DNA of 64,000 nucleotides, from assembly GCA_020619395.1 (NCBI GenBank), contig GCA_020619395.1_4860.1; one strand, written 5' to 3'. Below are positions 3,338 to 16,470 of the stretch, in pieces. Source of the DNA: a phage. The notes beneath the pieces were generated by a model that saw only the letters and a program-made list of their open reading frames with translations, made no database searches and had not been told where the DNA came from. How positions within the stretch are numbered: position 1 is the first letter of the stretch; every line of letters begins with the position of its first letter. A program made the position numbers and the translations under genes.

Positions 3338-6300
3338 ATGCCGAGAGAAGATGCGGCGCAGTTTAACGGTACCCTCAGTACCGCTACTTACCCGAACCGT
3401 TATTCGACGGTCATTCCCGTCGAAGCACCGTTCTATCGCATCGGGTTAACGTTAACCGTTACCGATAAAACAACCGGAACCAAACGCAAGTTAATAGAAG
3501 GTCTTGATTATTTCTTAGGACATTACTTCCAGGAATTAGCCGAGGCTGAGAACGATGCAATATACGGCAGCATAATGCTGCTGAACGCCACAGAGGTAGA
3601 ATACGAGTTGTTGTCGGTTGGTCGACAGTATCGCATCCCTGCTTCTGAAATCGGCAAGTATCTGGTTAAGACAGATATGAAAGACCCGCGTAACTGCGAT
3701 TGGTCTGAGCTGATGAAATATCCGCCGATTATCTCGCCAATCGACCCGCCAAAAGATCTCGAAGAAGCCATCCTTCGCGATGAGATTGTAAAGGCGCTGG
3801 AAGATATCCGACTGGGCATTTTAGAACGTGCCCACGAACTGGATGAGGCTTTTGCCGAAGTTACCGATTTGATTTATCAGAACGGTAAACAGGTGTTTGA
3901 TGACGAAATGTATCAACACCACCTGATTAAAAATGCACATGGTTACACCTGTGGCGATATCGGTGCACTCCCTGTGCTCGGTAAGGCCGTGGATGCGACT
4001 AAGGCGTTTGGACGTACACTGGCAGAGCTAGTGACGTTAATGTCTACCAGCGGCATCCAACAGAAACACGTTGACATGCTTCTGGATAATACCCTGGGTG
4101 ATTTACTGGGCCGTATGCGTGTTCTGAATAACGACGCGATTACGTTCCAAACAACGTCTGGTCACGTTATCAGCATGAAGGGTGAGAAGTTCATTATCAC
4201 CTCGACAAAACCGCTGGTATTAAAAGCTGACCAGGATAACAACGAACCGGGTATCGCTACGGAGTTCAGTGCTGGTCTGAACACGCTTTGGGTTCACTCG
4301 GGTAAAGCAGGTGACAAGTGGGGCGCTTATGATGCAGGTGTGCTTGCACCTGTATATAACAGCGTGTATCTCGTTACACCGGATATGGTTAAGATGTACT
4401 TGACCTCGGTGAAGATACTTCCAGCAAACGCCTACTTCAAGTCCAGCGACACGTTGAAGATTTACGGCTCTGGTAAAGAAACAAACAAAGTTTACATGAA
4501 TGCGGAGCTGCCTGCAGCAACCACAACTGTGCAGGGTTTGTTTGCGATTACTAACCTCTCGGCATCCGCTGCAGCGTCCACAGCGATTTCCCAAAAAGCT
4601 GTTACTGACTTGAAGAACAAACTCGACGGATATGTGGACGACACGTATACAGTCAATGGTAAAGGGTTTGTATTAGATTCAAACGGGCAGATGCATCTGA
4701 CCTTAACCGCGGCAGATTTCGGTATTGAGAAGATGAACAATACCGGACCGCTGGAGAAACCGGTTACTAATGCGTTGCGCACCGTGCTATCAGGCAAAGC
4801 GCTTACAACGCACACCCACACCATTGCAGATCTCGATAACGTGCCGTACGCATCCACGTCTGTTACAGGTTTGGCTAAACTGTGGGATGCAATCGACACT
4901 ACCTCGGATAAGATGGTCACTTCGCGTCAGGGCTTCTTGCTTGAACAAAAGATTGACACACTGAATGACAAGATTGCTACGCTGTTGCCCGCATGGACTG
5001 TCGGCGGATCATCGTACGGCAACAATAACTTCTTGCCTATACCTGTCCAGGGGAACTACGAAGGGTATACCAAAAACCAAACCTGGCAGAAAGGTTTGGC
5101 GCGTTACGAGTCTGGTAAGGTTTACTCGCTCCGTAACGGTTCTAACGGGAATCCACCAGGTGACTGGGCTATCTATTACGCCTATGCTGATGTGTCGCCA
5201 AGCAATACGCTGGAAAATATGCAGCAGACGTCCGTACGTTATCGACCCGCTGGAATGTCGGCGTATCCTGGGGTGAATCTGGTTGCTATTGTGATTACCG
5301 GTACCGATGCAATGATCTGCTTAGGCAGTGACGGTGCGTACTACCTGGTCATCTTCGATGGGACGATTGACCATGCAAAACATCATCGTGTTGTTAAAGT
5401 GGTGTTGGGTGATTACAAGAACGGTAATGGTGCGGGCACAGTAACGACAGCACCGTGGGCTCCAAACGCTTCTACAGACGATTTGATTGTTTGTAATGAG
5501 CGTGTCTACCTGTTGCGTACGGTGCTTACCTCCGGTGACTATTTCGTGAGTATGCGTAGCATCGCACTCAACGAACTTAATCCGGGTGGTAGCAACACGT
5601 TTGTGGCGGATGCGTTAACAGGCGGGATATTAACGTCGGGTGAAAACGTTTATCTACGACAGGGACAGAAACGTGCAGCTTCCGATGCGCTCCCAGCACC
5701 AGTTACACAGATCTACGCAGACGCGTTAGCGAAATGGAACAATGCAATCAACTTTGTACATGGCCCTGAGTGTAATCACGCGATTGGTGTTGATGGGCTG
5801 AAATTTCGTGTTGGTTTAACGCCAACAGTCTGGTTTGCCTCCTCCACAGGACAGACGATTAACTTTAAACAGTGGACGTCAAGCTTTGTTGTCGACTGTA
5901 GCGCATTAACGGTAACTCTGGAAGGCGCTGATCGATTCCCTATTGTGGCTGATCTTACCACGGTTCGTTATAACAGTGGTGCTGAGATTGGGATTCCGAG
6001 CCGGAAGTGGGGCGAAGGCCAAGCTAATAACAAAACCTTTGCAACATCGCAAGACAAGTATATTGTTTCGCAAGGACATGCAGGCGATCGCGACCTAATG
6101 CCTTATGTCACGATTACAACGTTAGATGACGGTGTGAGTTGGTACGAGTACCTGTCGTGCGACTACAACTTCACTGCCAGAAGTTTTAGTGCGGTAATGT
6201 TAAACCAAGGTCGTGGTTCTATCTACGAGCTGGGTATGGCGTATCCGCTGACTCTGGGAGCGAATTCCAGACTTATCTGGTTGTCACAACCGCGTTCCCG

Positions 6301-8521: not shown

Positions 8522-8568
8522 CAGATAGCGCTATGGGGCAAGGAAGCCCCAATCAAAGGAGTTTGGCA

Positions 8569-9771
8569 ATGGCCGAAATCATTTATCAGTACCCGCTTGA
8601 CCTTACCGGGACATTAACGTCGAACGCCGTTACACGGCGTATTACGTTAGGTTCTGGTAAAGTTAACCGGGCTTTTGCTTTTCCTGACGGAGCTTTCTAC
8701 GCGGATACCTTCCGCTTGGCAGCTGCGAATAAACCAGGTGTCTACCCGTACAAACGCGGCACAGACTACGAACTGATTTTTGCACATACTGCATATCAGA
8801 AAATGACCAAGAACCGCGAAGTGGTCATGGGTGTGGTGGTAACTAACTCGGCCATTCCTACTGATATCGAAGTCTCTGCGCAAGTCGTTGGTGGTTTTCA
8901 GTCCGCGAACGTCGAAGGTATCCGACAAGCGATTGCGTCGCTGAAAATTGAAGACCGTGTGGTGGACTTCAAGGATCTTCGAAACGTACCTGATACGTTC
9001 CCATCCGCCCCGACGTATAAAGACCTTGGCGATATCTACGGTTTTGAGTATATCATTACCGTACTCGCTGGGATTAAAGATGCGATTAACTCCGGCTCTG
9101 CAGTACAGCTGGAAGAAATCAAAGGTATTCTGGACGGTCTGAAAAACGACTTCCTCGATGCCTTAAATGCCCACATCAACGCCGAAGGTAACGTACACAA
9201 TCTCGACATTCATCAGGTTAATGGCCTGACGGAGACGGAGATTCGTGCTCTGATTCAAAGTGTACAGACTGCCATTGACGCCACTATCAAAGATATCGGC
9301 GACTTAAGAGCAGCAGACACGGCGTTGGGGCAACGCATCGATGCAATTGTGGCTTCGTTAGCCGCGTGGAACGACCAGCTTAATGTAGTTGCTCAAAATT
9401 ACCAGAAAATGTCGTTAGCATTAGCTAACCTTAATTCTCTGGTGTTGCAATTACAGAAGATGGTTAACGATCTTCAGTCTGCACTGAATGAAACAAATCA
9501 GCGCGTCACGGATCTTGAGAATCAGGGCAAAGACTTCCAACAGCAAATTGATAACCTGCAAGGACAAATCAACAGTCTTAAAACTCAGGTTATAAACAAC
9601 ACCAACGCAATTTCGCAGGCAAACCAGAATCTGGCGAACCATGCGGCTGCGGATAACCCACACCCGAATTACCTCCATAAACAGTATGGCGGTGTTGTGC
9701 AGGCTGCTGTTCACGTCAACAACAGCCTCACCTCGCGCGACGATGTTCAAGCTGAAGCGGGTACTAAGTAA
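8569..9771 (+). CDS. Fibre-associated protein with C-terminal coiled coil
   Basis: ATG 8569 with AAGGAG upstream (tracked start 8533). C-terminal heptad-like region LQKMVNDLQSALNETNQRVTDLENQGKDFQQQIDNLQGQINSLKTQ. Confidence 0.6.
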   Translation: MAEIIYQYPLDLTGTLTSNAVTRRITLGSGKVNRAFAFPDGAFYADTFRLAAANKPGVYPYKRGTDYELIFAHTAYQKMTKNREVVMGVVVTNSAIPTDIEVSAQVVGGFQSANVEGIRQAIASLKIEDRVVDFKDLRNVPDTFPSAPTYKDLGDIYGFEYIITVLAGIKDAINSGSAVQLEEIKGILDGLKNDFLDALNAHINAEGNVHNLDIHQVNGLTETEIRALIQSVQTAIDATIKDIGDLRAADTALGQRIDAIVASLAAWNDQLNVVAQNYQKMSLALANLNSLVLQLQKMVNDLQSALNETNQRVTDLENQGKDFQQQIDNLQGQINSLKTQVINNTNAISQANQNLANHAAADNPHPNYLHKQYGGVVQAAVHVNNSLTSRDDVQAEAGTK

Positions 9772-9784
9772 CTTGTTTACGAGC

Positions 9785-9820
9785 CGGACTATGTTTATGG
9801 ACATAGTCCGCTCGTTCTAC
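9785..9820 (+). promoter_or_regulatory. Hairpin between fibre gene and first Cys-repeat peptide gene (attenuator or terminator-like)
   Basis: CGGACTATGT/ACATAGTCCG 10-bp stem, loop TTATGG, followed by CTCGTTCTACTTTTT. Confidence 0.35.
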
Positions 9821-9836
9821 TTTTTAAGGAAGCGTA

Positions 9837-10229
9837 ATGGCGATATCTATTAAAGACGTCAGAAACCGCGTCCAGATAGTCGAAGCTAACATGGCGACAG
9901 GCCCCCGCATCGAGGCGCAAGTGGCCTCTAAAGCCCATAATGCAGCAGACCGATTTGGGGGTTGGACGAAAGCACAGCTAGATTGCGGCGGGACATGTTC
10001 TTGGACGTGCTCTAACGGTTGCTCGCATGGCTGTTCGAGCTGTTCAGGAAGCTGTTCTGCTTCTTGTATCGGTAGCTGTTCTTCGACGTGTGGCGGTAAC
10101 TGTTCTGGTTGCTCTGGTTGTTCTGGTGGTTGCAGTAGTAGCTGTACCGGTAACTGTTCAGGTGGTTGCGGCGGCTCTTGTTCCGCAAACTGCTCCGGGG
10201 CCTGCTCCGGCGGCTGTTCAGGTCGCTAA
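9837..10229 (+). CDS. Cys-repeat peptide 1 (130 aa): leader plus core with 21 Cys mostly at 4-residue spacing
   Basis: RBS AAGGAAG 5 nt before ATG. Leader MAISIKDVRNRVQIVEAN.., core CSWTCSNGCSHGCSSCSGSC... Candidate radical-SAM substrate. Confidence 0.6.
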   Translation: MAISIKDVRNRVQIVEANMATGPRIEAQVASKAHNAADRFGGWTKAQLDCGGTCSWTCSNGCSHGCSSCSGSCSASCIGSCSSTCGGNCSGCSGCSGGCSSSCTGNCSGGCGGSCSANCSGACSGGCSGR

Positions 10230-10625
10230 GGGGGATTAAATGGCAATTGGATTAAAAGAACTGAATAACCGATTAAACGCGATCGATGCAAACGCTTTAA
10301 AGAACACCACGAATGTGCAAAACTACATTCGCAATAAAGCTACGAATAACGCCGACTTGTTCGCAGGTCAAGGCCGTTCGCACTATGACTGTGGTGGCAC
10401 ATGCTCTTTTAGTTGCTCGAGTTGTTCTGGCGGGTGTACTGGGTCTGCTACGGGCGGTTGTGGGTCGACTTGTTCCGCAAACTGTGTATCGGGCTGTAGC
10501 AGTAGCTGTACGGGCTGTAGCTCTTCGTGCTCGGGTGGTTGTAGCGGAACGTGTACTGGTAACTGTTCTGGGGGTTGTGGTAAATCCTGCTCCGCAAACT
10601 GCTCCGGCGCGTGTTCTGGTGGTTG
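10000..10625 (+). repeat. Low-complexity codon repeats (TGC-TCN-GGN-GGN) within the Cys-repeat peptide genes
   Basis: Reiterated tgctctggttgctctggttgttctggtggttgc-type strings encoding C-S-G-G-C repeats; coding, not an array. Confidence 0.6.
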
Positions 10626-10641
10626 TTCAGGTCCTAACTGA
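10240..10641 (+). CDS. Cys-repeat peptide 2 (133 aa), paralog of peptide 1
   Basis: RBS GGGGGA before ATG. Leader MAIGLKELNNRLNAIDAN.., 20 Cys, CSANCSGACSGGCSG tail shared with peptide 1. Confidence 0.6.
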   Translation: MAIGLKELNNRLNAIDANALKNTTNVQNYIRNKATNNADLFAGQGRSHYDCGGTCSFSCSSCSGGCTGSATGGCGSTCSANCVSGCSSSCTGCSSSCSGGCSGTCTGNCSGGCGKSCSANCSGACSGGCSGPN

Positions 10642-10652
10642 CGGAGGCTTAT

Positions 10653-10859
10653 GTGATCAGTCTCAAGACTATTCGAAACCGTCTCGTTACGGTAGAAGGT
10701 TACATTACAACCGCACAGGCAAACAACTATATCGCTAACCAGGGCACCGTGTCGACCACAAATAACCTGGCTGGCTTACCGCTTTCTCACTATAACTGTA
10801 ATGGTGGGTGTAGCTGGTCCTGCAGCGGAAGCTGTAGCCGTGGAGCGGGGAATCGATAA
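10653..10859 (+). CDS. Cys-repeat peptide 3 (68 aa), short paralog
   Basis: GTG start with GGAGG 5 nt upstream. Homologous leader ISLKTIRNRLVTVE.., core CNGGCSWSCSGSCS (4 Cys). Confidence 0.45.
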   Translation: MISLKTIRNRLVTVEGYITTAQANNYIANQGTVSTTNNLAGLPLSHYNCNGGCSWSCSGSCSRGAGNR

Positions 10860-10881
10860 CAGAAAACGTTCGGAGTATTAA

Positions 10882-11769
10882 ATGAAAAACGATTTGCATC
10901 TTGCGTATAAAACCACATTCAACCACCCGCTGCATCTATCTTCCCCAGATTCAGTGCGTGCGCACCTTGCTGACAAAGTCAGACTGATTGCACAGATTCC
11001 TGGTGAGTGGCCAAAGGTTCGTGGTCGCTTCTTGACCGACAAGAAGAACTACACCGTAGAAAATACGTTTAAGATCCGTGATATGGTTGCAGAGGCCATC
11101 GTTATCTTTAACGGCGATGGTAACTCTCGTGGCGTGTTAGTCGACGGTAAGTATTTCTTCAGTGAAGGGATTTTGAACAACAGCGTCGATTTAGAACTGA
11201 TGTTTACACCGTTTGACGAACTTGAAGCAAAACCGATGGCGCGCCGTTGGTGGAGTCCGGACTATCTGGGCTCGTTCCCTTACTACTTTGTACTGGTACC
11301 TGCCGATACGGAAACGTATTTCGACACCGAACCGTACATCGATATCGAGGGATATAAAGAACTCGGCATCACCCGTTTAGCGGACATGATGGCGTATAGC
11401 TATAAGTTCGTGTGGGATAAAAAGCGTTCTGTCTGGTATGCGTTGACTGACGATTTTGAAATCACCAAACGTATTCGTAAGCCGTGGATGCAACACCTGG
11501 TTCAAACCCGATATGGGGATTACCCGGCGACAGAAGCGGATTTGAGTAAGCTGGTAAGCTTCCTCTTAACGAAGGTGGATTTAACGAAAGAAGAAGCAGA
11601 AGCTGTTTCTGAGATTCGTAGTCGTTCGGTAACGTTGGCCGATTTGAAACGCTTGAACGAAAGACACGCCGACCTGAACAAAATTTTAGCTGCCTATCAC
11701 GACCCGATGTTACTGGTGCCTGGCGCTAATGTAGACGAAGATCCTTTATTCGCCATTGATTATATTTAA
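10882..11769 (+). CDS. Hypothetical protein in Cys-peptide/rSAM cluster (295 aa)
   Basis: ATG with GGAG upstream. No recognisable motif; co-oriented and tightly spaced with the rSAM genes. Confidence 0.6.
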   Translation: MKNDLHLAYKTTFNHPLHLSSPDSVRAHLADKVRLIAQIPGEWPKVRGRFLTDKKNYTVENTFKIRDMVAEAIVIFNGDGNSRGVLVDGKYFFSEGILNNSVDLELMFTPFDELEAKPMARRWWSPDYLGSFPYYFVLVPADTETYFDTEPYIDIEGYKELGITRLADMMAYSYKFVWDKKRSVWYALTDDFEITKRIRKPWMQHLVQTRYGDYPATEADLSKLVSFLLTKVDLTKEEAEAVSEIRSRSVTLADLKRLNERHADLNKILAAYHDPMLLVPGANVDEDPLFAIDYI

Positions 11770-11791
11770 AAATATACTGGAGCAACCTGCA

Positions 11792-12706
11792 ATGACAGAT
11801 CAAGTAGAATCCAGGATCTCGTCTGAACTGTACGACAAACCGTCAATTCTGTCGGTTGTCGCAACTTCTAAGTGTAACTTAGACTGTAGCTTCTGTGGAG
11901 GGGCTTATTACATGGATAGAGAAGATACTTCTCGTGAGTTTCAACGCGAAGAGATTCTCTCGATTTTAGAGAAGAATCCGGATATCGGTGAGATTCATTG
12001 GACGGGCGGTGAGCCGCTGTTAGCGCAGCGTAAGATTGAAGACTTCGTGAACGAGTTGAAGGAGTCTCATCCGAACCTCCGTCATCACATGTACACCAAC
12101 GGTTTAAAGATGCGTAAATCACATCTGCCGTTGCTGAAACAGTTCGACCTTATCTTTGTGTCCATTGACGGCTACAAGAAGTCGGAACGTCCGTTTATGA
12201 ACTTTGTAAACGGTGGTAATCACGAAGCGCTGGAAGTGCTGTACGAGCTGGACAACTATTACACCTGGGGTGTGATGACGCGTGACCAGTTAGGTGATAA
12301 ACGCTGGTACGAAGATTTCATCGAGCTGCACCGAGCAATCTATCATTACCGTCCAGGTGGTGTGTCGTTGTTGTTTGATGCGATGATGCCGAAACCGTTA
12401 TCGCCAGACCACGTCATGAACTTCATGTACGGGTATTGGAAAATACTCGACAATATCGAACGCCTTAACATGCAGAACGATTCTGAATGTGGGCTCGCGA
12501 TCAGTAAAATGTTCGATACCGAGTGCAACACGTGCAGTGAAGTGCTGTGGCTTAACGCCGACGGTACGCAGGAGCAAATTCAGAACGCCCCAGAGATATT
12601 GGAAGTCGGCTGTAATCGCCTGGCGCGTTCTATCGGCGTTGATGCGTATAACTACATCAACCGTGTAATTTCTGCTAAGCGTAAACGGGCGGCGAACAAT
12701 GAGTAA
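11792..12706 (+). CDS. Radical SAM enzyme (304 aa)
   Basis: CNLDCSFCGG CxxxCxxC motif near N-terminus; additional C-terminal Cys cluster (ECNTCSE..VGC). Start moved to ATG 11792 (tracked 11756). Confidence 0.75.
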   Translation: MTDQVESRISSELYDKPSILSVVATSKCNLDCSFCGGAYYMDREDTSREFQREEILSILEKNPDIGEIHWTGGEPLLAQRKIEDFVNELKESHPNLRHHMYTNGLKMRKSHLPLLKQFDLIFVSIDGYKKSERPFMNFVNGGNHEALEVLYELDNYYTWGVMTRDQLGDKRWYEDFIELHRAIYHYRPGGVSLLFDAMMPKPLSPDHVMNFMYGYWKILDNIERLNMQNDSECGLAISKMFDTECNTCSEVLWLNADGTQEQIQNAPEILEVGCNRLARSIGVDAYNYINRVISAKRKRAANNE

Positions 12707-14027
12707 TAGCGAACAGCAAATCCAGTACACACCACGCACGTATCAGGTTGTGACTAACCTGTCATGTAACCTGGACTGCGAATACTGCTACGAGCGTAAA
12801 TATCCGCGTAACAACAAAGTAGCAGACGTGATTGATTTTATCCACGCTTGTTTCGAGCGCGATAAAGATATCCCGAACGTTGAAGTCATCATCGATATCA
12901 TCGGTGGTGAGCCGTTCATGCAGCCTAAACTTCTTTTGGCGGCCTTTGAAACCGCAGAGAAGTTATGCGCAGAACACAATCGCCCGTATATGTTCAGTAT
13001 CTCCACGAACGGTACGCTTCTGGACCGTCCGCTGAACAAAGAAATTATCGAGCGCTGGAAAGACAAACTGTCTATTGGGGTCTCCATCGATGGTTTACCT
13101 GAAGTCCATGACAAATATCGTATCTTTACCACGACGCGTGAAGGGTCGTACGAAGCTGCGGTACGCGGTTACAATTATCTGAAGAGTGTTGGCATCGCTG
13201 AACTGGGCGTAAAAGCGACGTTTACGATCGATACATTGCCGCACTATGCCGCCAGCATGAAATCGTTAATTGACATGTCCGGCGGTGGTACCATTTCTGG
13301 TAATGTAACGTACGAAGATATCCTGCCGCGCCATATGGCGTTGGATATCGCGAACCAGATGATGGACGTGATGGACTACTGGATTGAGAAGGGTCTGCAC
13401 ACCAACCCGCGTAACACGATTACACACATCATCCCGGATGGCCTGAACTTTATGGCAACTTGGGACCCGGATTGGCGTGACAAACTCTTACACGACGACT
13501 CTGTTCGTCTCGACCCAGAACGCCTGAAACCGTACTGCGGTACGTTGACGCACATGACCTGTCTCGGCTTTGATCGCAAGATTTACGGTTGTAACCGTTT
13601 CATGTCCACGGTAACTTCCCGCTCTGCTGTAGCGGAACTGGTCGGTCGTGAGTTTGTGAGTCTGGACGGTGGTAAGCTGTTAGAAGAGATTCAAACGCAG
13701 TACACCAACTACCCAGAAACCTGTTTAGGGTGTCCGATGAAACACAGCTGCGGTAGCTGCGCAGCGGCATCGTACGAAAACGGTGAAGGTACACTGGAAG
13801 ACCGTAAAGCGTATCACGCCGAGCGTCGTCAGTGTGGTTGGACTACTGCGAAGCTGATGGCGGCGGAATATTGGTATCAGAAAACTGGTACGACTCGCGC
13901 ATCAGATTTGCACGATAAATCCATGTGCTATTGTTCACGTTGTGTACGCCAACGTGCCGAAGCAGAAAAATTACAAAACGGAGCCCAGAATGAAGTCAAT
14001 ACTGATTCACAATTTTACGAAGCGTAA
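12699..14027 (+). CDS. Radical SAM enzyme with SPASM/twitch-like C-terminal Cys-rich domain (442 aa)
   Basis: CNLDCEYCYERK CxxxCxxC motif; C-terminal CLGCPMKHSCGSCAAAS..CGW..CYCSRC cluster typical of auxiliary Fe-S domains. Confidence 0.75.
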   Translation: MSNSEQQIQYTPRTYQVVTNLSCNLDCEYCYERKYPRNNKVADVIDFIHACFERDKDIPNVEVIIDIIGGEPFMQPKLLLAAFETAEKLCAEHNRPYMFSISTNGTLLDRPLNKEIIERWKDKLSIGVSIDGLPEVHDKYRIFTTTREGSYEAAVRGYNYLKSVGIAELGVKATFTIDTLPHYAASMKSLIDMSGGGTISGNVTYEDILPRHMALDIANQMMDVMDYWIEKGLHTNPRNTITHIIPDGLNFMATWDPDWRDKLLHDDSVRLDPERLKPYCGTLTHMTCLGFDRKIYGCNRFMSTVTSRSAVAELVGREFVSLDGGKLLEEIQTQYTNYPETCLGCPMKHSCGSCAAASYENGEGTLEDRKAYHAERRQCGWTTAKLMAAEYWYQKTGTTRASDLHDKSMCYCSRCVRQRAEAEKLQNGAQNEVNTDSQFYEA

Positions 14028-14556
14028 ACTGCACTTGGTCGATCGCTTCCTGCGCAAAAGCAAGCTGTACAATGTGCACGCAATTGTGGCAGGGGAAGAC
14101 TTCACTGATGAAATCCAAAGCCTGTTGATTAAATACGGGCTGAATGTGATGATCCCGGTCTACTGCGTTGAGAAAGGACACGAGTCTGTCGCGGAAATCG
14201 AAAAGCGCAACCCTGGCTTTGAGAAGCGACTGCTTGCATACCCACGCCACAAAATCGAACTGCTACGTCACTCTATTGATGAAGCCAGTCCTGAAAGTTT
14301 AGTGGCATTGGGCTTGTCATTCCCGCGGATGCGTATTCGTAACTTACGCTCCAATAACCCGGTTGACGCTTATTACACAGAACGTCAAATCTTCGAAGAA
14401 CACCTGCTCCCGCAGTTGGAAGAAGAAGAGCAACACAACATTTCTCTGTTGTGGGCCGGTAACCTCGATCAGGACTTCCAGATGCTGGACTTCGGTTTGT
14501 TGTTAGAACTTGGCCTGATTGAGGAGGACGAATGTCTGTTACTGACAAAAGCTTAA
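13990..14556 (+). CDS. Hypothetical protein, cluster member (188 aa)
   Basis: ATG 13990 with GGAG upstream (tracked start 13942 overlaps the rSAM gene). No assignable domain. Confidence 0.5.
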   Translation: MKSILIHNFTKRKLHLVDRFLRKSKLYNVHAIVAGEDFTDEIQSLLIKYGLNVMIPVYCVEKGHESVAEIEKRNPGFEKRLLAYPRHKIELLRHSIDEASPESLVALGLSFPRMRIRNLRSNNPVDAYYTERQIFEEHLLPQLEEEEQHNISLLWAGNLDQDFQMLDFGLLLELGLIEEDECLLLTKA

Positions 14557-15203
14557 CGAACGAAGAGATCCGCGCCCGTTATTTCCAGCGTGATTTGCCG
14601 ATTGATCGTCACGGTAATTTCATGGAACGAATCGGTGCGCAGGATCAGGGTCGTACCGGATTTTGTGCATTACTCCATTACCATCTCATCGAAGGGATGT
14701 CTGATAAAGAAGCCCTGGCACGCATGAAGCTGTATGAGATGTCGGAGATTGAAGCTAACTTCACATTGAAACGCACGAAAGAGTTTATTGCTAATGTGCT
14801 GGAGATTGACCTCGACGAAATTCGCGGGAATCTGAAATCTACCGCACGTTACATTTACGAAGACGTGCAGAAGATGCTGTTGGAACTCGACCACCGCTAC
14901 GAAGATGAGCGCCATGGTTATATCGAGTTTGAAGGTAGTCACTTTCAAGCCGATGAATCGTCGCGCACCATCCTCGGTCAATACATTCAGGCAGATACCG
15001 CACCAGAATACTGGCTCGATACGCTGAATACTAAGCACAGTCCGTTTACAGTAGCCCAATGTAAAGCGTTGCTGGCCGCTATTGTTGCACGTGACCAAGT
15101 GTTGCACTCAGCAATGGCAGATAACAAACGCCAAATCCGTGAGTTAGCTGAAAAGCGCGATTACACTGGATTAAAAACATTGTCCGAGTCACTCGGCATG
15201 TAA
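14532..15203 (+). CDS. Hypothetical protein, last gene of cluster (223 aa)
   Basis: GAGGAGG 4 nt before ATG; 25-nt overlap with upstream gene suggests coupling. Confidence 0.6.
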   Translation: MSVTDKSLTNEEIRARYFQRDLPIDRHGNFMERIGAQDQGRTGFCALLHYHLIEGMSDKEALARMKLYEMSEIEANFTLKRTKEFIANVLEIDLDEIRGNLKSTARYIYEDVQKMLLELDHRYEDERHGYIEFEGSHFQADESSRTILGQYIQADTAPEYWLDTLNTKHSPFTVAQCKALLAAIVARDQVLHSAMADNKRQIRELAEKRDYTGLKTLSESLGM

Positions 15204-15217
15204 GCAAAGAAAATAAA

Positions 15218-15258
15218 GGCCCTACCTCCCCGAAGGGAGGTAGGTACCTTTTATTTAT
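15218..15258. terminator. Bidirectional rho-independent terminator at convergent junction
   Basis: CCTACCTCCC-CGAA-GGGAGGTAGG hairpin flanked by A-run (left) and TTTTATTTATTT (right). Confidence 0.75.
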
Positions 15259-15284
15259 TTCTTAGAAACTACTAAGTTGTTTTG

Positions 15285-15812
15285 TTAAACGAATCCGTCC
15301 AGTTCACCGTTGGTGGTGCTCAGGTCAGTTTTAACGATTGGCTGCGTTACAGTATAAACTGCAAGGCTGGCAGGCTGGTATTTAATGTGGCCTTCTTTCA
15401 CCATAACAGTGATGATTTTCTCACCACTGTCGCCGTCCTCGCGTGAAATGGTGAGTTCAGACAATGCAAACGCATCTTCCGTTTTACCGGCGGCAATTAG
15501 ATCTGCGTTGACAAAAGCAAGCACTTCTTCATCGGTATCCCATTCTGCCTGGTCAGCGGTAACTGCTTTCGCACCGATGATGTTCAATGAATCGAGGCGG
15601 GTATAATGCAGCTCTTTCTCGCCAGTAAAGTTAGCGGATTCCGCGGTGGCAGTGATGGTGAGTTTGGAGTTGCGAGTGTCTCCAGAATCTGCTGGTGAAT
15701 AGTCAGCAACAGCGCCGAATGTAACGTCAGCAGAAGTTAACGGACTAGACAGTCCGCTGTTTGCAGCATTAAACAGCGCAACGAGTTGGTCTTTTGCAGA
15801 GATGACTGCCAT
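15285..15812 (-). CDS. Short member of fibre-module family (175 aa)
   Basis: N-terminal module (LVALFNAAN..RNSKLTITA..ELHYTRLDSL) plus C-terminal TNGELDGFV shared with C-type paralogs. Confidence 0.65.
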   Translation of the reverse strand: MAVISAKDQLVALFNAANSGLSSPLTSADVTFGAVADYSPADSGDTRNSKLTITATAESANFTGEKELHYTRLDSLNIIGAKAVTADQAEWDTDEEVLAFVNADLIAAGKTEDAFALSELTISREDGDSGEKIITVMVKEGHIKYQPASLAVYTVTQPIVKTDLSTTNGELDGFV

Positions 15813-15935: not shown

Positions 15936-16427
15936 ATGAAACGTCTATTTATCGTATTCGCGATTATAAACCTGTTGGCCGGTTGTGTTCAGTCGCCAAG
16001 CAACATAGGACAATTTAGCGCCACACCAGTAAAGAATCACGACTTGGTGATTTATACATGCACAGGGACGCAGGAGAAGTTTATAGACTACCGTCCGGTT
16101 CTGGACAATCTACAGATGATGCCGCGGTCAGTAACAGTAATGGATGTGGGTGCAAACTGGGTAGCAACGTGGGACGGTGGCAAACTAGAGTCACCGATGA
16201 TGTTTAAAGATACAATTGGCAAAATCGACGGGAATGTTAACACCACCACAGGTGAGCGTTATTACCGTATTAATAAAACCGTAAACGATAGCCCCACTTA
16301 CTCTTTTTCGGATGTGAACCCGTATACCGGCGAAGGTAAAGGGATGACATTCTTTCGCTGCAGCAGCGGGTTTATCGGTGAAGTTCCTACTCCGATTACG
16401 ATTGTTCCGTTAGAAGAAAATAAATAA
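15936..16427 (+). CDS. Lipoprotein (163 aa)
   Basis: Signal peptide MKRLFIVFAIINLLAGC with lipobox LAGC. Lone plus-strand gene between minus-strand genes, with its own terminator. Confidence 0.7.
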   Translation: MKRLFIVFAIINLLAGCVQSPSNIGQFSATPVKNHDLVIYTCTGTQEKFIDYRPVLDNLQMMPRSVTVMDVGANWVATWDGGKLESPMMFKDTIGKIDGNVNTTTGERYYRINKTVNDSPTYSFSDVNPYTGEGKGMTFFRCSSGFIGEVPTPITIVPLEENK

Positions 16428-16429
16428 TG

Positions 16430-16470
16430 CTTACCCACTCCCGTAAGGGGAGTGGGTAAGGGCTTTATTT
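16430..16470. terminator. Bidirectional terminator
   Basis: 13-bp stem CTTACCCACTCCC/GGGAGTGGGTAAG, loop GTAA, then GGCTTTATTT; A-rich on the other side. Confidence 0.7.

Follow-up and report, generated by a model that had tools for sequence, protein, structure and literature searches.

Cys-repeat proteins and radical SAM enzymes in the tail module of an SPN3US-like jumbo phage: candidate crosslinked miniature tail-fibre subunits

Proteins in which every fourth residue is a cysteine, encoded next to a radical SAM/SPASM enzyme, are covered by a group of family models, in which TIGR04115 stands for the maturase and TIGR04114, TIGR04117 and PF27846 for its CXXX-repeat targets. This CXXX-repeat system exists in silico only, and we know of no published chemistry for it. 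The SPASM enzymes PapB (freyrasin) and CteB (SCIFF) make repeated Cys thioethers in short periodic motifs. In the QhpD-QhpC pair of quinohemoprotein amine dehydrogenase, a SPASM enzyme sets several Cys thioethers in a small protein that later serves as a structural subunit, and the modified protein is thus kept in a larger assembly, not released as a natural product. Covalent reinforcement of a virion part, finally, is known from the isopeptide chainmail of the HK97 capsid, whose crosslinks form autocatalytically. A sequence-only reading of the DNA analysed here, a window of 64,000 nucleotides, had reported Cys-repeat peptides beside two radical SAM enzymes and knew of no described system of this kind. 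Given that TIGR04114, TIGR04115 and PF27846 exist, this last point does not hold, although the window proteins score below the cutoffs of all four families. Overall, the earlier observation is confirmed, while its interpretation is only partly supported.

The window derives from an SPN3US-like jumbo phage, a giant Salmonella phage (98-99% identity), and the locus corresponds to the gp167-gp161 block of SPN3US. Its plus strand carries a tightly packed operon in the order ORFs A, B and C, gp165, gp164, gp163, gp162 and gp161. ORF A (9837-10229; 130 aa, 21 Cys) and its paralogue ORF B (10240-10641; 133 aa, 20 Cys) are Cys-repeat proteins, and a further paralogue, ORF C (10653-10859; 68 aa, 4 Cys, GTG start), is without the long repeat. 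All three begin with a common N-terminal region of 48-50 residues (49 in ORF A), somewhat longer than the conserved 45-residue leader originally proposed, followed by a junction motif, which in ORF C reads YNCNGGCSWSCS. Of the intervals between cysteines, 17 of the 20 in A, 16 of the 19 in B and all three in C equal four residues; the cores are almost exclusively C, S and G, interspersed with a few T, N and A, and lack both D and E. Each ORF has a good Shine-Dalgarno sequence (AAGGAAG for A, AGGGGGA for B, GGAGG for C). Changes between genera fall mainly at the third codon position (32/21/76 at positions 1/2/3 in one example), with a dN/dS of about 0.11-0.17 in the cases where it could be computed, indicating that the Cys frame is the true reading frame and that ORFs A-C are under purifying selection; the three small genes are genuine, as had been supposed. 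Across four phage genera all 21 Cys columns of A and all 20 of B are invariant, compared to 15 of 60 and 19 of 63 other core columns (25-30%). ORF A matches phrog_6085 (E 7e-40) and, weakly, TIGR04114 (18.4 bits, cutoff 20); an AlphaFold2 model of ORF B was uninformative (pLDDT 40.5). ORF C is called as a 68-aa hypothetical protein in hundreds of contigs.

The principal enzyme, gp163 (12699-14027, plus strand), is a radical SAM/SPASM maturase with a CNLDCEYC motif and a full eight-Cys SPASM pattern near its C-terminus (C-x7-C-x9-C ... C-x2-C-x5-C-x2-C ... C); the radical SAM triad and the eight auxiliary cysteines are kept in 32 sequences. Its top family match is NCBIfam TIGR04115, the CXXX-repeat-target maturase (E 3e-36, 125.6 bits), followed by the ranthipeptide maturase PapB (E 1e-32, 113.6 bits); both matches span nearly all of gp163 and lie far below the curated cutoffs of 350 and 340 bits, respectively. 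The QhpD family TIGR03906 also appears among the hits of the analysis, as a distant relative (55-116 bits, cutoff 453 bits). Among solved structures, the thioether synthase CteB is nearest to gp163 (5WGG; E 3e-10). These relatives place the enzymes with peptide maturases and not with QueE or NrdG, in keeping with the earlier assignment, and we regard gp163 as the likely catalyst of Cys crosslinking. Compared to PapB and CteB, gp163 acts, as proposed here, in the context of a phage tail module on cores devoid of Asp/Glu acceptors, and it has no N-terminal RRE, the alignment opening only at CteB residue 106 and gp163 residue 22. QhpC likewise differs in having Asp/Glu acceptors, no repeat array and a non-viral setting.

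The second radical SAM enzyme, gp164 (11792-12706, plus strand; CNLDCSFC; Pfam Radical_SAM, E 1e-15), ends in a short Cys motif (C-x2-C ... GC), of which C257 and G285-C286 are invariant. It likely starts at the ATG at 11792, although the longest ORF begins at 11756. No NCBIfam family matches it at or above cutoff, but its homology to the first radical SAM gene in a Deferribacter prophage cassette extends over the entire protein (E 2e-14). Both radical SAM motifs and the SPASM-like C-terminus had been recognized before, as had the position of the enzymes downstream of the peptides, which holds with the qualification that gp165 (10882-11769, plus strand) intervenes. This conserved cassette partner of 295 aa yields a confident structure model, yet one without a known fold relative. 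At the end of the operon, gp162 (13990-14556, plus strand; 188 aa) matches only phrog_7988 and has homologues in jumbo-clade (SPN3US-like) loci only, and gp161 (14532-15203, plus strand), seen solely in the same clade, carries a DUF4376 domain (Pfam, E 1.4e-9), which we take to be typical of phage tail and tail-fibre assembly proteins; it also weakly matches the tail protein phrog_2837. The start of gp162 precedes the end of gp163 at 14027, and this and other gene overlaps in the operon suggest translational coupling.

Relatives of gp163 occur in at least 489 IMG/VR contigs, of which the best 80 loci were examined for Cys-repeat genes. A Cys-repeat ORF on the same strand accompanies the enzyme in 75 of these 80 viral loci, mostly immediately upstream and with 6 to 103 consecutive cysteines spaced by 3-5 residues, whereas the opposite strand contains a single such ORF. 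Because of this co-occurrence and the top match to TIGR04115, the comparative evidence for an enzyme-substrate link between gp163 and the Cys-repeat proteins is strong, as the sequence-only reading had anticipated. Viral gp163 relatives from tail modules even clear the TIGR04115 cutoff, at 434-497 bits. Beyond what defines the CXXX-repeat system, the gp163 clade also has another radical SAM enzyme (gp164), gp165 and the C-S-W junction motif, N-A-x-x-L-x-G-x-x-x-S-x-Y-x-C-x-G-x-C-S-W-x-C-S, and its targets are fibre modules, as opposed to peptides of 53-75 aa.

In unrelated phages, the N-terminal "leader", junction motif and repeats together form the C-terminal module of tail-fibre proteins of about 200-570 aa. 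Proteins of 250-570 aa end in the junction motif and repeats in, among others, a Deferribacter prophage and a 213-kb phage contig; downstream of the fused proteins follow gp165-like, gp164-like and gp163-like genes, and the cassette of Cys-repeat protein, gp165-like protein and two radical SAM enzymes thus recurs in unrelated phages. By our reading, the fused proteins appear to bear hallmarks of fibres, namely HxH...YYTxxE repeats, collagen-like GxY and tail-collar-like N-termini, and two of them adjoin GpJ-like tail genes. A profile search with A, B and C returned 165 clusters; among the 150 listed, 36 contain the junction motif, 26 of them as proteins of 119-559 aa that extend merely 50-125 residues past it, the remainder being short ORF-C-like or truncated forms. 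The genomic surroundings are in every case a tail module. In viral loci outside the jumbo clade, the neighbours upstream of the Cys-repeat genes (73 non-redundant proteins) belong mostly to the baseplate wedge, tail fibre, tail-collar fibre and central tail fibre J families.

As the Cys-repeat module ends tail-fibre proteins in hundreds of other phages, it is probably an enzyme-crosslinked fibre part, and on balance we favour, with restrained confidence, the view that A, B and C are miniature tail-fibre subunits crosslinked by radical SAM chemistry and not free peptides. They would be produced late in infection, along with the fibre genes, and would consist of a short helical N-terminal segment for oligomerisation or attachment and the junction motif, to which A and B alone add a (C-x-x-x)n rod of small residues. 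In the reducing cytoplasm, which prevents disulfides, gp163 could employ a 5'-deoxyadenosyl radical to link the sulfur of each Cys to a carbon in a nearby residue, giving sactionine- or ranthionine-type thioethers and hence a ladder of small rings. gp164 might contribute a set of links complementary to these or a modification of another kind, and gp165 is proposed as a substrate-presenting or assembly factor in place of the RRE domain that gp163 lacks. The stiff, protease- and redox-resistant product would then be mounted on the gp167-gp170 fibre/baseplate apparatus, where gp162 and gp161 may assist. Such a part would recall HK97 in that a phage structural protein is hardened by covalent crosslinks inside the cell, with dedicated radical enzymes on a tail-fibre module replacing autocatalytic isopeptide bonds in a capsid. 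We found no precedent for a radical-enzyme-crosslinked tail-fibre module in the searchable literature; if correct, this would be chemistry so far undescribed for virus particles. Against it, A-C have no counterpart to the long fibre body at the N-terminus of the fused proteins, making their attachment hypothetical, and gp163 and the repeats score below their family cutoffs.

A structural fibre module might instead undergo radical SAM chemistry other than thioether ladders, such as conversion of Cys/Ser to formylglycine (anSME-like), epimerisation, or C-C or ether crosslinks, with the cysteines binding metal or forming disulfides after lysis. The cores, rich in Ser and Gly, offer no acidic acceptors of the kind that PapB or QhpD employ, which also counts against the crosslinked-subunit reading; anSME, cyclophane-forming and other SPASM families score 48-59 bits with gp163, and gp164 fits no family. 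We nevertheless consider different chemistry unlikely, as each of the top-scoring relatives with characterised function (PapB, CteB and the SCIFF maturases) forms Cys thioethers, and every Cys is fixed while its neighbours vary freely, as expected of the reacting residue.

Still more doubtful is a released RiPP, for which a leader of about 49 residues would be cut and the crosslinked core freed at lysis as toxin, signal or metal chelator, unrelated to the virion and only incidentally located in the tail module. A gene order in which small precursors come first and radical SAM/SPASM enzymes next does resemble sactipeptide and ranthipeptide clusters. Three paralogous precursors are common in RiPP clusters, and distant bacterial radical SAM loci encode peptides of 53-75 aa with Cys repeats in tandem, arranged as in a classical RiPP cluster, a further point against fibre subunits. 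However, matches of the operon genes to Pfam, NCBIfam and PHROG revealed no leader peptidase or exporter, nor does the operon hold an immunity gene; the "leader" and junction together have their homologue in the interior of full-length fibre proteins, and the tail-module context is repeated in unrelated phages. In addition, ORF C is nearly coreless, and one relative (P0171) runs on past the motif into an extra, globular domain of ~140 aa. ORFs A-C are therefore probably unlike a classical released RiPP; the "classic" RiPP architecture first ascribed to the locus is doubtful, and of the functions then suggested, a virion component is favoured over a toxin or signal.

Published mass spectrometry of SPN3US virions lists gp167-173, with gp161-166 all missing, and the radical SAM enzymes are therefore not virion proteins. 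For ORFs A-C this absence is uninformative, since they are unannotated or mis-framed: ORF A has no annotation in SPN3US, and gp166, overlapping ORF B, is annotated in the wrong frame, the SPN3US_0166 translation being an out-of-frame product rich in Ala/Val/Leu/Arg. Tat-type signals typically mark proteins that fold or take up a cofactor before export, and distal fibre ends usually hold receptor-binding or tip domains. That A-C are neither substrates nor virion parts but CXXX arrays chelating Fe, Zn or Fe-S, for instance to feed or stabilise both enzymes, or transient fibre-assembly chaperones, is the least probable account, since their extreme, metallothionein-like Cys density, the Tat-type signal peptides of the bacterial CXXX proteins P0322 and P0325 and the missing gp161-166 are set against co-occurrence specific to one radical SAM/SPASM clade annotated for such repeats, fusion at the distal end of fibre proteins, and annotation errors that account for the proteome gap.

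The virion proteins of SPN3US include gp167-gp170, of which gp168-gp170 are missing from a tailless mutant; gp167 was found in purified virions, the table giving it no head assignment (PMC5694885 Suppl. Table 1). Its homologue in the window (8533-9771, plus strand; 99% identical), a structural protein associated with the tail or fibre that contains a long coiled coil, adjoins the cassette upstream and matches phrog_2163 virion structural protein as well as coiled-coil proteins. At the other end, a bidirectional intrinsic terminator (15221-15244; 10-bp GC-rich stem, T-runs on both strands) ends both the operon and gp160, the convergent gene for a head protein. The location noted earlier, after fibre genes and ahead of this terminator, is accurate, save that a stable RNA hairpin followed by a U-rich stretch (9779-9815, plus strand) separates gp167 from ORF A. 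With an MFE of -23.7 kcal/mol (z = -4.47; none of 200 shuffles folds equally well), this hairpin might act as a partial terminator or attenuator, or might stabilise the transcript. At the same position, Huxley, Kwan, CR5 and Phobos show, as judged by eye only, hairpin-capable inverted repeats of other sequence.

The cluster lies in a 5.6-kb region that shares 98-99% identity with Salmonella phage SPN3US and related phages (Seoulvirus; phiKZ-like jumbo phages) and that corresponds to SPN3US genes 167 to 161; gene products of the window are named here after their SPN3US homologues. Directly after the homologues of gp170 to gp167, and hence in a tail fibre/baseplate module, three small genes follow on the plus strand: ORF A (9837-10229; 130 aa, 21 Cys), ORF B (10240-10641; 133 aa, 20 Cys) and ORF C (10653-10859; 68 aa, 4 Cys, GTG start), each with a good Shine-Dalgarno sequence and separated by gaps of only 10-11 nt. 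Since several frames are open in the repeat DNA, we tested the coding frame directly, using orthologues from Machinavirus (Huxley), Wellingtonvirus (Kwan) and Derbicusvirus (CR5, Phobos). Substitutions relative to these orthologues pile up at third codon positions (e.g. 32/21/76), synonymous sites are near saturation, pN amounts to 0.15-0.41 (0.22-0.35 for A and B), and dN/dS, where computable, is about 0.11-0.17. Across four genera, every Cys is invariant (21/21 in A, 20/20 in B), compared to just 15 of 60 and 19 of 63 of the other core positions in A and B, respectively. The three-gene layout is kept throughout the jumbo-phage clade, with about 21 Cys in A, 20-23 in B and 2-4 in C. A, B and C are real, strongly constrained genes; the three small Cys-repeat ORFs singled out in an earlier sequence-only reading of this DNA, with 21, 20 and 4 Cys, are thus confirmed by their Shine-Dalgarno sequences, codon-position pattern and Cys conservation.

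The codon-position pattern and the conservation of the Cys frame also speak against the alternative-frame or opposite-strand ORFs that have been annotated over the repeats in SPN3US, Huxley, Kwan, CR5 and Phobos. SPN3US_0166 (gp166; 10313-10738 on the plus strand of the window, 9614-9949 in locus L002) is out of frame with ORF B and has an Ala/Val/Leu/Arg-rich annotated product, ORFs A and C have no annotation in SPN3US, and hypothetical genes of the opposite strand are drawn across the repeats in Huxley (gp176/177), Kwan (gp183), CR5 (CR5_157) and Phobos (gp167/168). The exact A and B sequences of the window are absent from a collection of 15 billion proteins, in which ORF C is called on hundreds of contigs, and a homology search with ORF B returned few correctly called relatives. 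Gene callers often choose the wrong frame or strand for these repeats, a systematic annotation blind spot, and the published proteomes of SPN3US, a model jumbo phage, would lack these proteins. In the SPN3US virion proteome, gp167-173 were detected, and none of gp161-166 (PMC5105663, PMC5694885). For A, B and C this absence is uninformative, since the annotation offered none of the three in the right frame; furthermore, their cores contain no Lys or Arg over 67-84 residues, and therefore yield no normal tryptic peptides and are invisible to standard tryptic workflows. The N-terminal regions offer such peptides, namely VQIVEANMATGPR, IEAQVASK, AHNAADR and FGGWTK for ORF A, and LNAIDANALK, NTTNVQNYIR and ATNNADLFAGQGR for ORF B.

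All three proteins combine a common N-terminal region of 48-50 residues with a core composed of Cys, Ser and Gly and a little Thr, Asn and Ala, devoid of Asp and Glu. The Cys are spaced by exactly four residues in 17 of 20 intervals in A, 16 of 19 in B and all three in C, such that A and B possess the Cys run that characterizes CXXX-repeat targets. Against the HMM of the CXXX-repeat target family TIGR04114, A, B and C score 18.4, 16.4 and 13.7 bits, all below the cutoff of 20 bits, which is exceeded by a fibre relative from locus L009 (20.7 bits); several relatives have precomputed matches to the corresponding family PF27846. In its AlphaFold2 model (pLDDT 40.5), ORF B shows no more than weak helices near the N-terminus.

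A, B and C are located 1.8-2.9 kb upstream of the gene for gp163, in the same operon. gp163 is a maturase-type radical SAM enzyme with a CX3CX2C motif (C23, C27 and C30 in CNLDCEYC) that is conserved in 32 aligned sequences. The SPASM-like, Cys-rich C-terminus noticed earlier is borne out by eight conserved Cys, seven of them invariant (C280, C298, C342, C345, C351, C354, C379) and one, C288, almost invariant, matching the seven to eight Cys that serve the two auxiliary clusters of SPASM domains; the Pfam SPASM model itself gives no match to gp163 at E <= 0.1. The best family is TIGR04115, the CXXX-repeat-target maturases (125.6 bits, E 3e-36, far below the cutoff of 350 bits), followed by the ranthipeptide maturase PapB (113.6 bits, cutoff 340, aligned over profile positions 12-319 of 330); the SCIFF maturase scores 53.9 bits (cutoff 425). 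As peptide maturases dominate these matches, gp163 cannot be equated with QueE, NrdG or MoaA. The closest solved structure is that of the thioether-forming SCIFF maturase CteB. The alignment with this structure opens at CteB residue 106, and the radical SAM motif of gp163 begins at residue 23; the preceding CteB residues include its RiPP recognition element (RRE). gp163, which aligns only past this N-terminal domain, therefore has no RRE.

The second radical SAM protein, gp164 (CNLDCSFC), has a conserved C-terminal C-x2-C ... G-C motif and is claimed by no curated family. It scores 40 bits for QueE (cutoff 260), 39 bits for NrdG (cutoff 131) and 43 bits for MoaA (cutoff 284), in each case falling far short, and it is a conserved member of the cassette; with gp163 matching TIGR04115 and PapB best, HMM searches thus dispose of a QueE/NrdG-type identity for either enzyme, the case that would have spoken against peptide maturation. 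gp165 lacks an NCBIfam match, as do the small proteins that accompany the class-2 systems described below, and no winged-helix or RRE-like match was found for it. In pairwise tests, gp165 and gp164 proved homologous to their positional counterparts elsewhere (E 1e-9, 6e-8 and 2e-14). gp161 carries a DUF4376 domain and has no similarity to a 305-aa protein of locus L011. In a 225-kb IMG/VR relative (L025, 3126-4914), an additional gp164-like radical SAM gene (3543-4454) is inserted between ORF A and ORF B.

The genomic surroundings place the cluster next to virion genes. Upstream of ORF A lie the gene for gp167 and, before it, those for the large proteins of the gp168/169/170 type; gp167-gp170 were all found in purified SPN3US virions, and gp168-170 count as tail proteins, since a tailless mutant lacks them (PMC5105663, PMC5694885). 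Downstream, genes 165 to 161 overlap or nearly abut, and the operon is closed by the bidirectional terminator that the sequence-only reading had placed after the cluster.

A connection to fibres emerged from distant homologues of gp163 (34-39% identity), which we found in a Deferribacter abyssi prophage, a 213-kb phage contig and another phage-like contig. In all three, a tail gene (GpJ-like or T4 gp13-like) is followed by a 258-568-aa protein and by gp165-like, gp164-like radical SAM and gp163-like radical SAM/SPASM proteins, so that a four-part cassette recurs. As judged from reading the sequences, the 258-568-aa protein resembles a tail fibre, with an "INxNF" N-terminus and HxH...YYTxxE repeats; its C-terminus reads "...K-A-T-N-A-D-x-L-G-G-Q-x-x-S-Y-Y-R-C-x-x-C-S-W-T-C-S-S-x-C" and continues with 13-30 Cys at CXXX spacing. 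The same C-S-W junction motif is present in A, B and C, between the N-terminal region and the repeats, and elsewhere, fibre proteins of 200-570 aa end in this same succession of N-terminal segment, junction and repeats. When 1.84 billion representative proteins were searched with a profile built from A, B and C, 165 clusters were retrieved, and the junction motif occurs in 36 of the 150 clusters listed out of these 165. Most of these carriers (26 of 36) are proteins of 119-559 aa that have unrelated fibre-like N-terminal parts and just 50-125 residues past the motif, while the other 10 are short ORF-C-like or truncated forms. Again by reading of the sequences, the motif and repeats end proteins with collagen-like, tail-collar-like and HxH/YYT-repeat regions; the module is fused to fibre proteins. 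As the junction is common to full-length fibres, what had been called a conserved 45-aa leader is better described as a fibre segment, weakly predicted to be helical; it is indeed common to all three proteins, but is 48-50 residues long. An uncultured 210-aa relative of ORF C (P0171) has an extra domain of about 140 residues past the C-S-W motif, suggesting that the N-terminal segment and motif may also bear a distal domain.

Such loci are widespread. An alignment of gp163 relatives matched at least 489 viral contigs in IMG/VR, ranging from siphovirus-like prophages to 250-kb jumbo phages. In 75 of the best 80 loci, usually immediately upstream, there is an ORF on the same strand with a run of 6 or more Cys, 103 at most, spaced by 3-5 residues; an opposite-strand ORF of this kind was seen once among these 80, and in at least three of the five exceptions the contig ends just upstream of the match. 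The loci fall into two classes. Class 1, to which the window belongs, combines the C-S-W junction with a gp165-like gene and a pair of radical SAM genes. Class 2 is marked by an N-terminal domain of about 110 residues, the start motif "SSCRGACSGLC" and 40-105 Cys; it has just one radical SAM enzyme, with viral relatives of this class scoring 497 and 434 bits against TIGR04115, above the cutoff. Examples of class-2 proteins amid tail genes are found at loci L074 (2932-4434; 105 Cys in 500 aa, adjoined by a single radical SAM/SPASM gene) and L039 (4756-6198; 92 Cys in 480 aa, adjoined by the single radical SAM/SPASM enzyme scoring 434 bits against TIGR04115). When 73 non-redundant upstream proteins from viral loci outside the jumbo clade were compared with PHROGs, the commonest families were baseplate wedge, tail fibre, tail-collar fibre, baseplate, tail protein and central tail fibre J.

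Species-representative bacterial genomes contain no close relative of gp163 (28% identity at most). In these bacteria, tandem Cys-repeat peptides of 53-75 aa adjoin distant radical SAM relatives in a classical RiPP-like, non-fibre layout, which contradicts the notion that the whole TIGR04115 family is phage-borne. Related radical SAM enzymes therefore have Cys-repeat partners of two forms, peptides in bacteria and fibres in phages, and the window probably belongs with the fibre form. Two CXXX-repeat proteins of about 185 aa (P0322 and P0325) carry a Tat-like signal, SRREFFKKAAKSLLPILGAITLAS; this may point to export, presumably in bacteria, once the protein has been modified or loaded with a cofactor in the cytoplasm.

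For the fate of the Cys array, we favour conversion into thioether crosslinks, since the nearest characterised enzymes (PapB, CteB and the SCIFF maturases, QhpD) all join Cys sulfur to carbon, which is a non-alpha carbon in ranthipeptides of the PapB/CteB type, and since selection hits every Cys while neighbouring residues drift. gp163, together with gp164, would install these crosslinks in the reducing cytoplasm; gp165 may present the substrate, standing in for the missing RRE; and the product could then be mounted on the gp167-170 fibre apparatus, perhaps aided by gp162 and gp161. Our broadest proposal, held with clearly less than even confidence, is that many kinds of phages harden their tail-fibre tips post-translationally via radical SAM enzymes: the CXXX array would become a ladder of thioether rings, possibly joining the chains of a trimer, A, B and C of SPN3US-like phages might form a heterotrimer, and the outcome would be a covalently stapled, redox-insensitive rod or adhesin made in the reducing cytoplasm.

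The nearest competitor to thioether formation is a different radical chemistry acting on a structural protein. It shares the fibre context and the two radical SAM enzymes. In its favour, the CX3D/E acceptor residues of the known PapB motif are missing from the A, B and C cores; the sulfur-to-carbon chemistry common to the nearest characterised enzymes argues for thioethers instead. A released RiPP, in line with the classic RiPP architecture proposed at first, fits the precursor-sized ORFs of 68-133 aa that accompany the radical SAM/SPASM enzymes, but the same segment ends fibre proteins elsewhere, and, in contrast to a strict RiPP pathway with leader removal and product release, the nine proteins of the block have no match to leader peptidase, exporter or other peptidase and transporter families in Pfam, NCBIfam or PHROGs. 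That A, B and C are simply metal-binding or scaffold proteins agrees with their extreme density of Cys and sits poorly with the maturase-type enzymes beside them.

The initial impression that no described system matches did not hold, as the CXXX-repeat family (TIGR04115/TIGR04114), known in silico, is the closest relative, and the window system appears to work like a radical SAM/SPASM RiPP pathway. It nevertheless fails the curated thresholds of TIGR04115, TIGR04114 and PapB, differs from sactipeptide and other RRE-dependent maturases in the absence of an N-terminal RRE from gp163, and adds to the CXXX-repeat family a second radical SAM enzyme, a partner without known fold relative, the junction motif and the fibre context. 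Radical SAM thioether chemistry is known from bacteriocin-like peptides and one dehydrogenase subunit; if our proposal is true, it would also be a widespread route to phage tail-fibre parts and the first case of a virion structural protein modified by radical SAM enzymes. Part of the orphan CXXX-repeat "RiPP" family, which has so far been defined in silico only, would thereby gain a biological role. We found no paper in the searchable phage literature that ties radical SAM enzymes to tail fibres; in the accessible literature, phage radical SAM genes are taken as metabolic helpers or antibiotic-synthesis genes, and these enzymes go unmentioned in a jumbo-phage review of 2026. The proposal is directly testable in SPN3US, a genetically tractable model with amber-mutant genetics and archived mass spectrometry data. 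SPN3US-like phages are biocontrol candidates against Salmonella and Erwinia, and the chemistry of their fibres matters for both host range and the stability of the particles.

Several of the SPFM phage records (LR535903-LR535913; SPFM5, 6, 7, 9, 10, 12, 14, 15) match window positions 9700-15300 in many short pieces or partially at the protein level; for SPFM5, 9, 10 and 15, 40 pieces of 99.5% identity add up to about 44% of the query. In related SPFM records the radical SAM proteins are fragmented, and all of these look like indel-riddled assemblies rather than true gene loss. The gap from gp167 to ORF A is predicted to hold a stable hairpin that has a U-rich tail (9779-9815; -23.7 kcal/mol, z = -4.5), and hairpin-capable inverted repeats of differing sequence can be found by eye at the same spot in four other phages, which suggests that an RNA element, for instance an attenuator or a stabiliser, is conserved there. 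At the other end, the gp160 homologue (15285-15812, minus strand) is convergent with the operon and uses the same bidirectional terminator; gp160 is among the most abundant head proteins of SPN3US, with >300 copies per capsid (PMC5694885). A second strong bidirectional terminator with a 13-bp stem (16430-16460) separates a lipoprotein-like ORF of 163 aa (15936-16427) from a convergent 171-aa ORF, whose Phobos orthologue is annotated as peptidase M15A.
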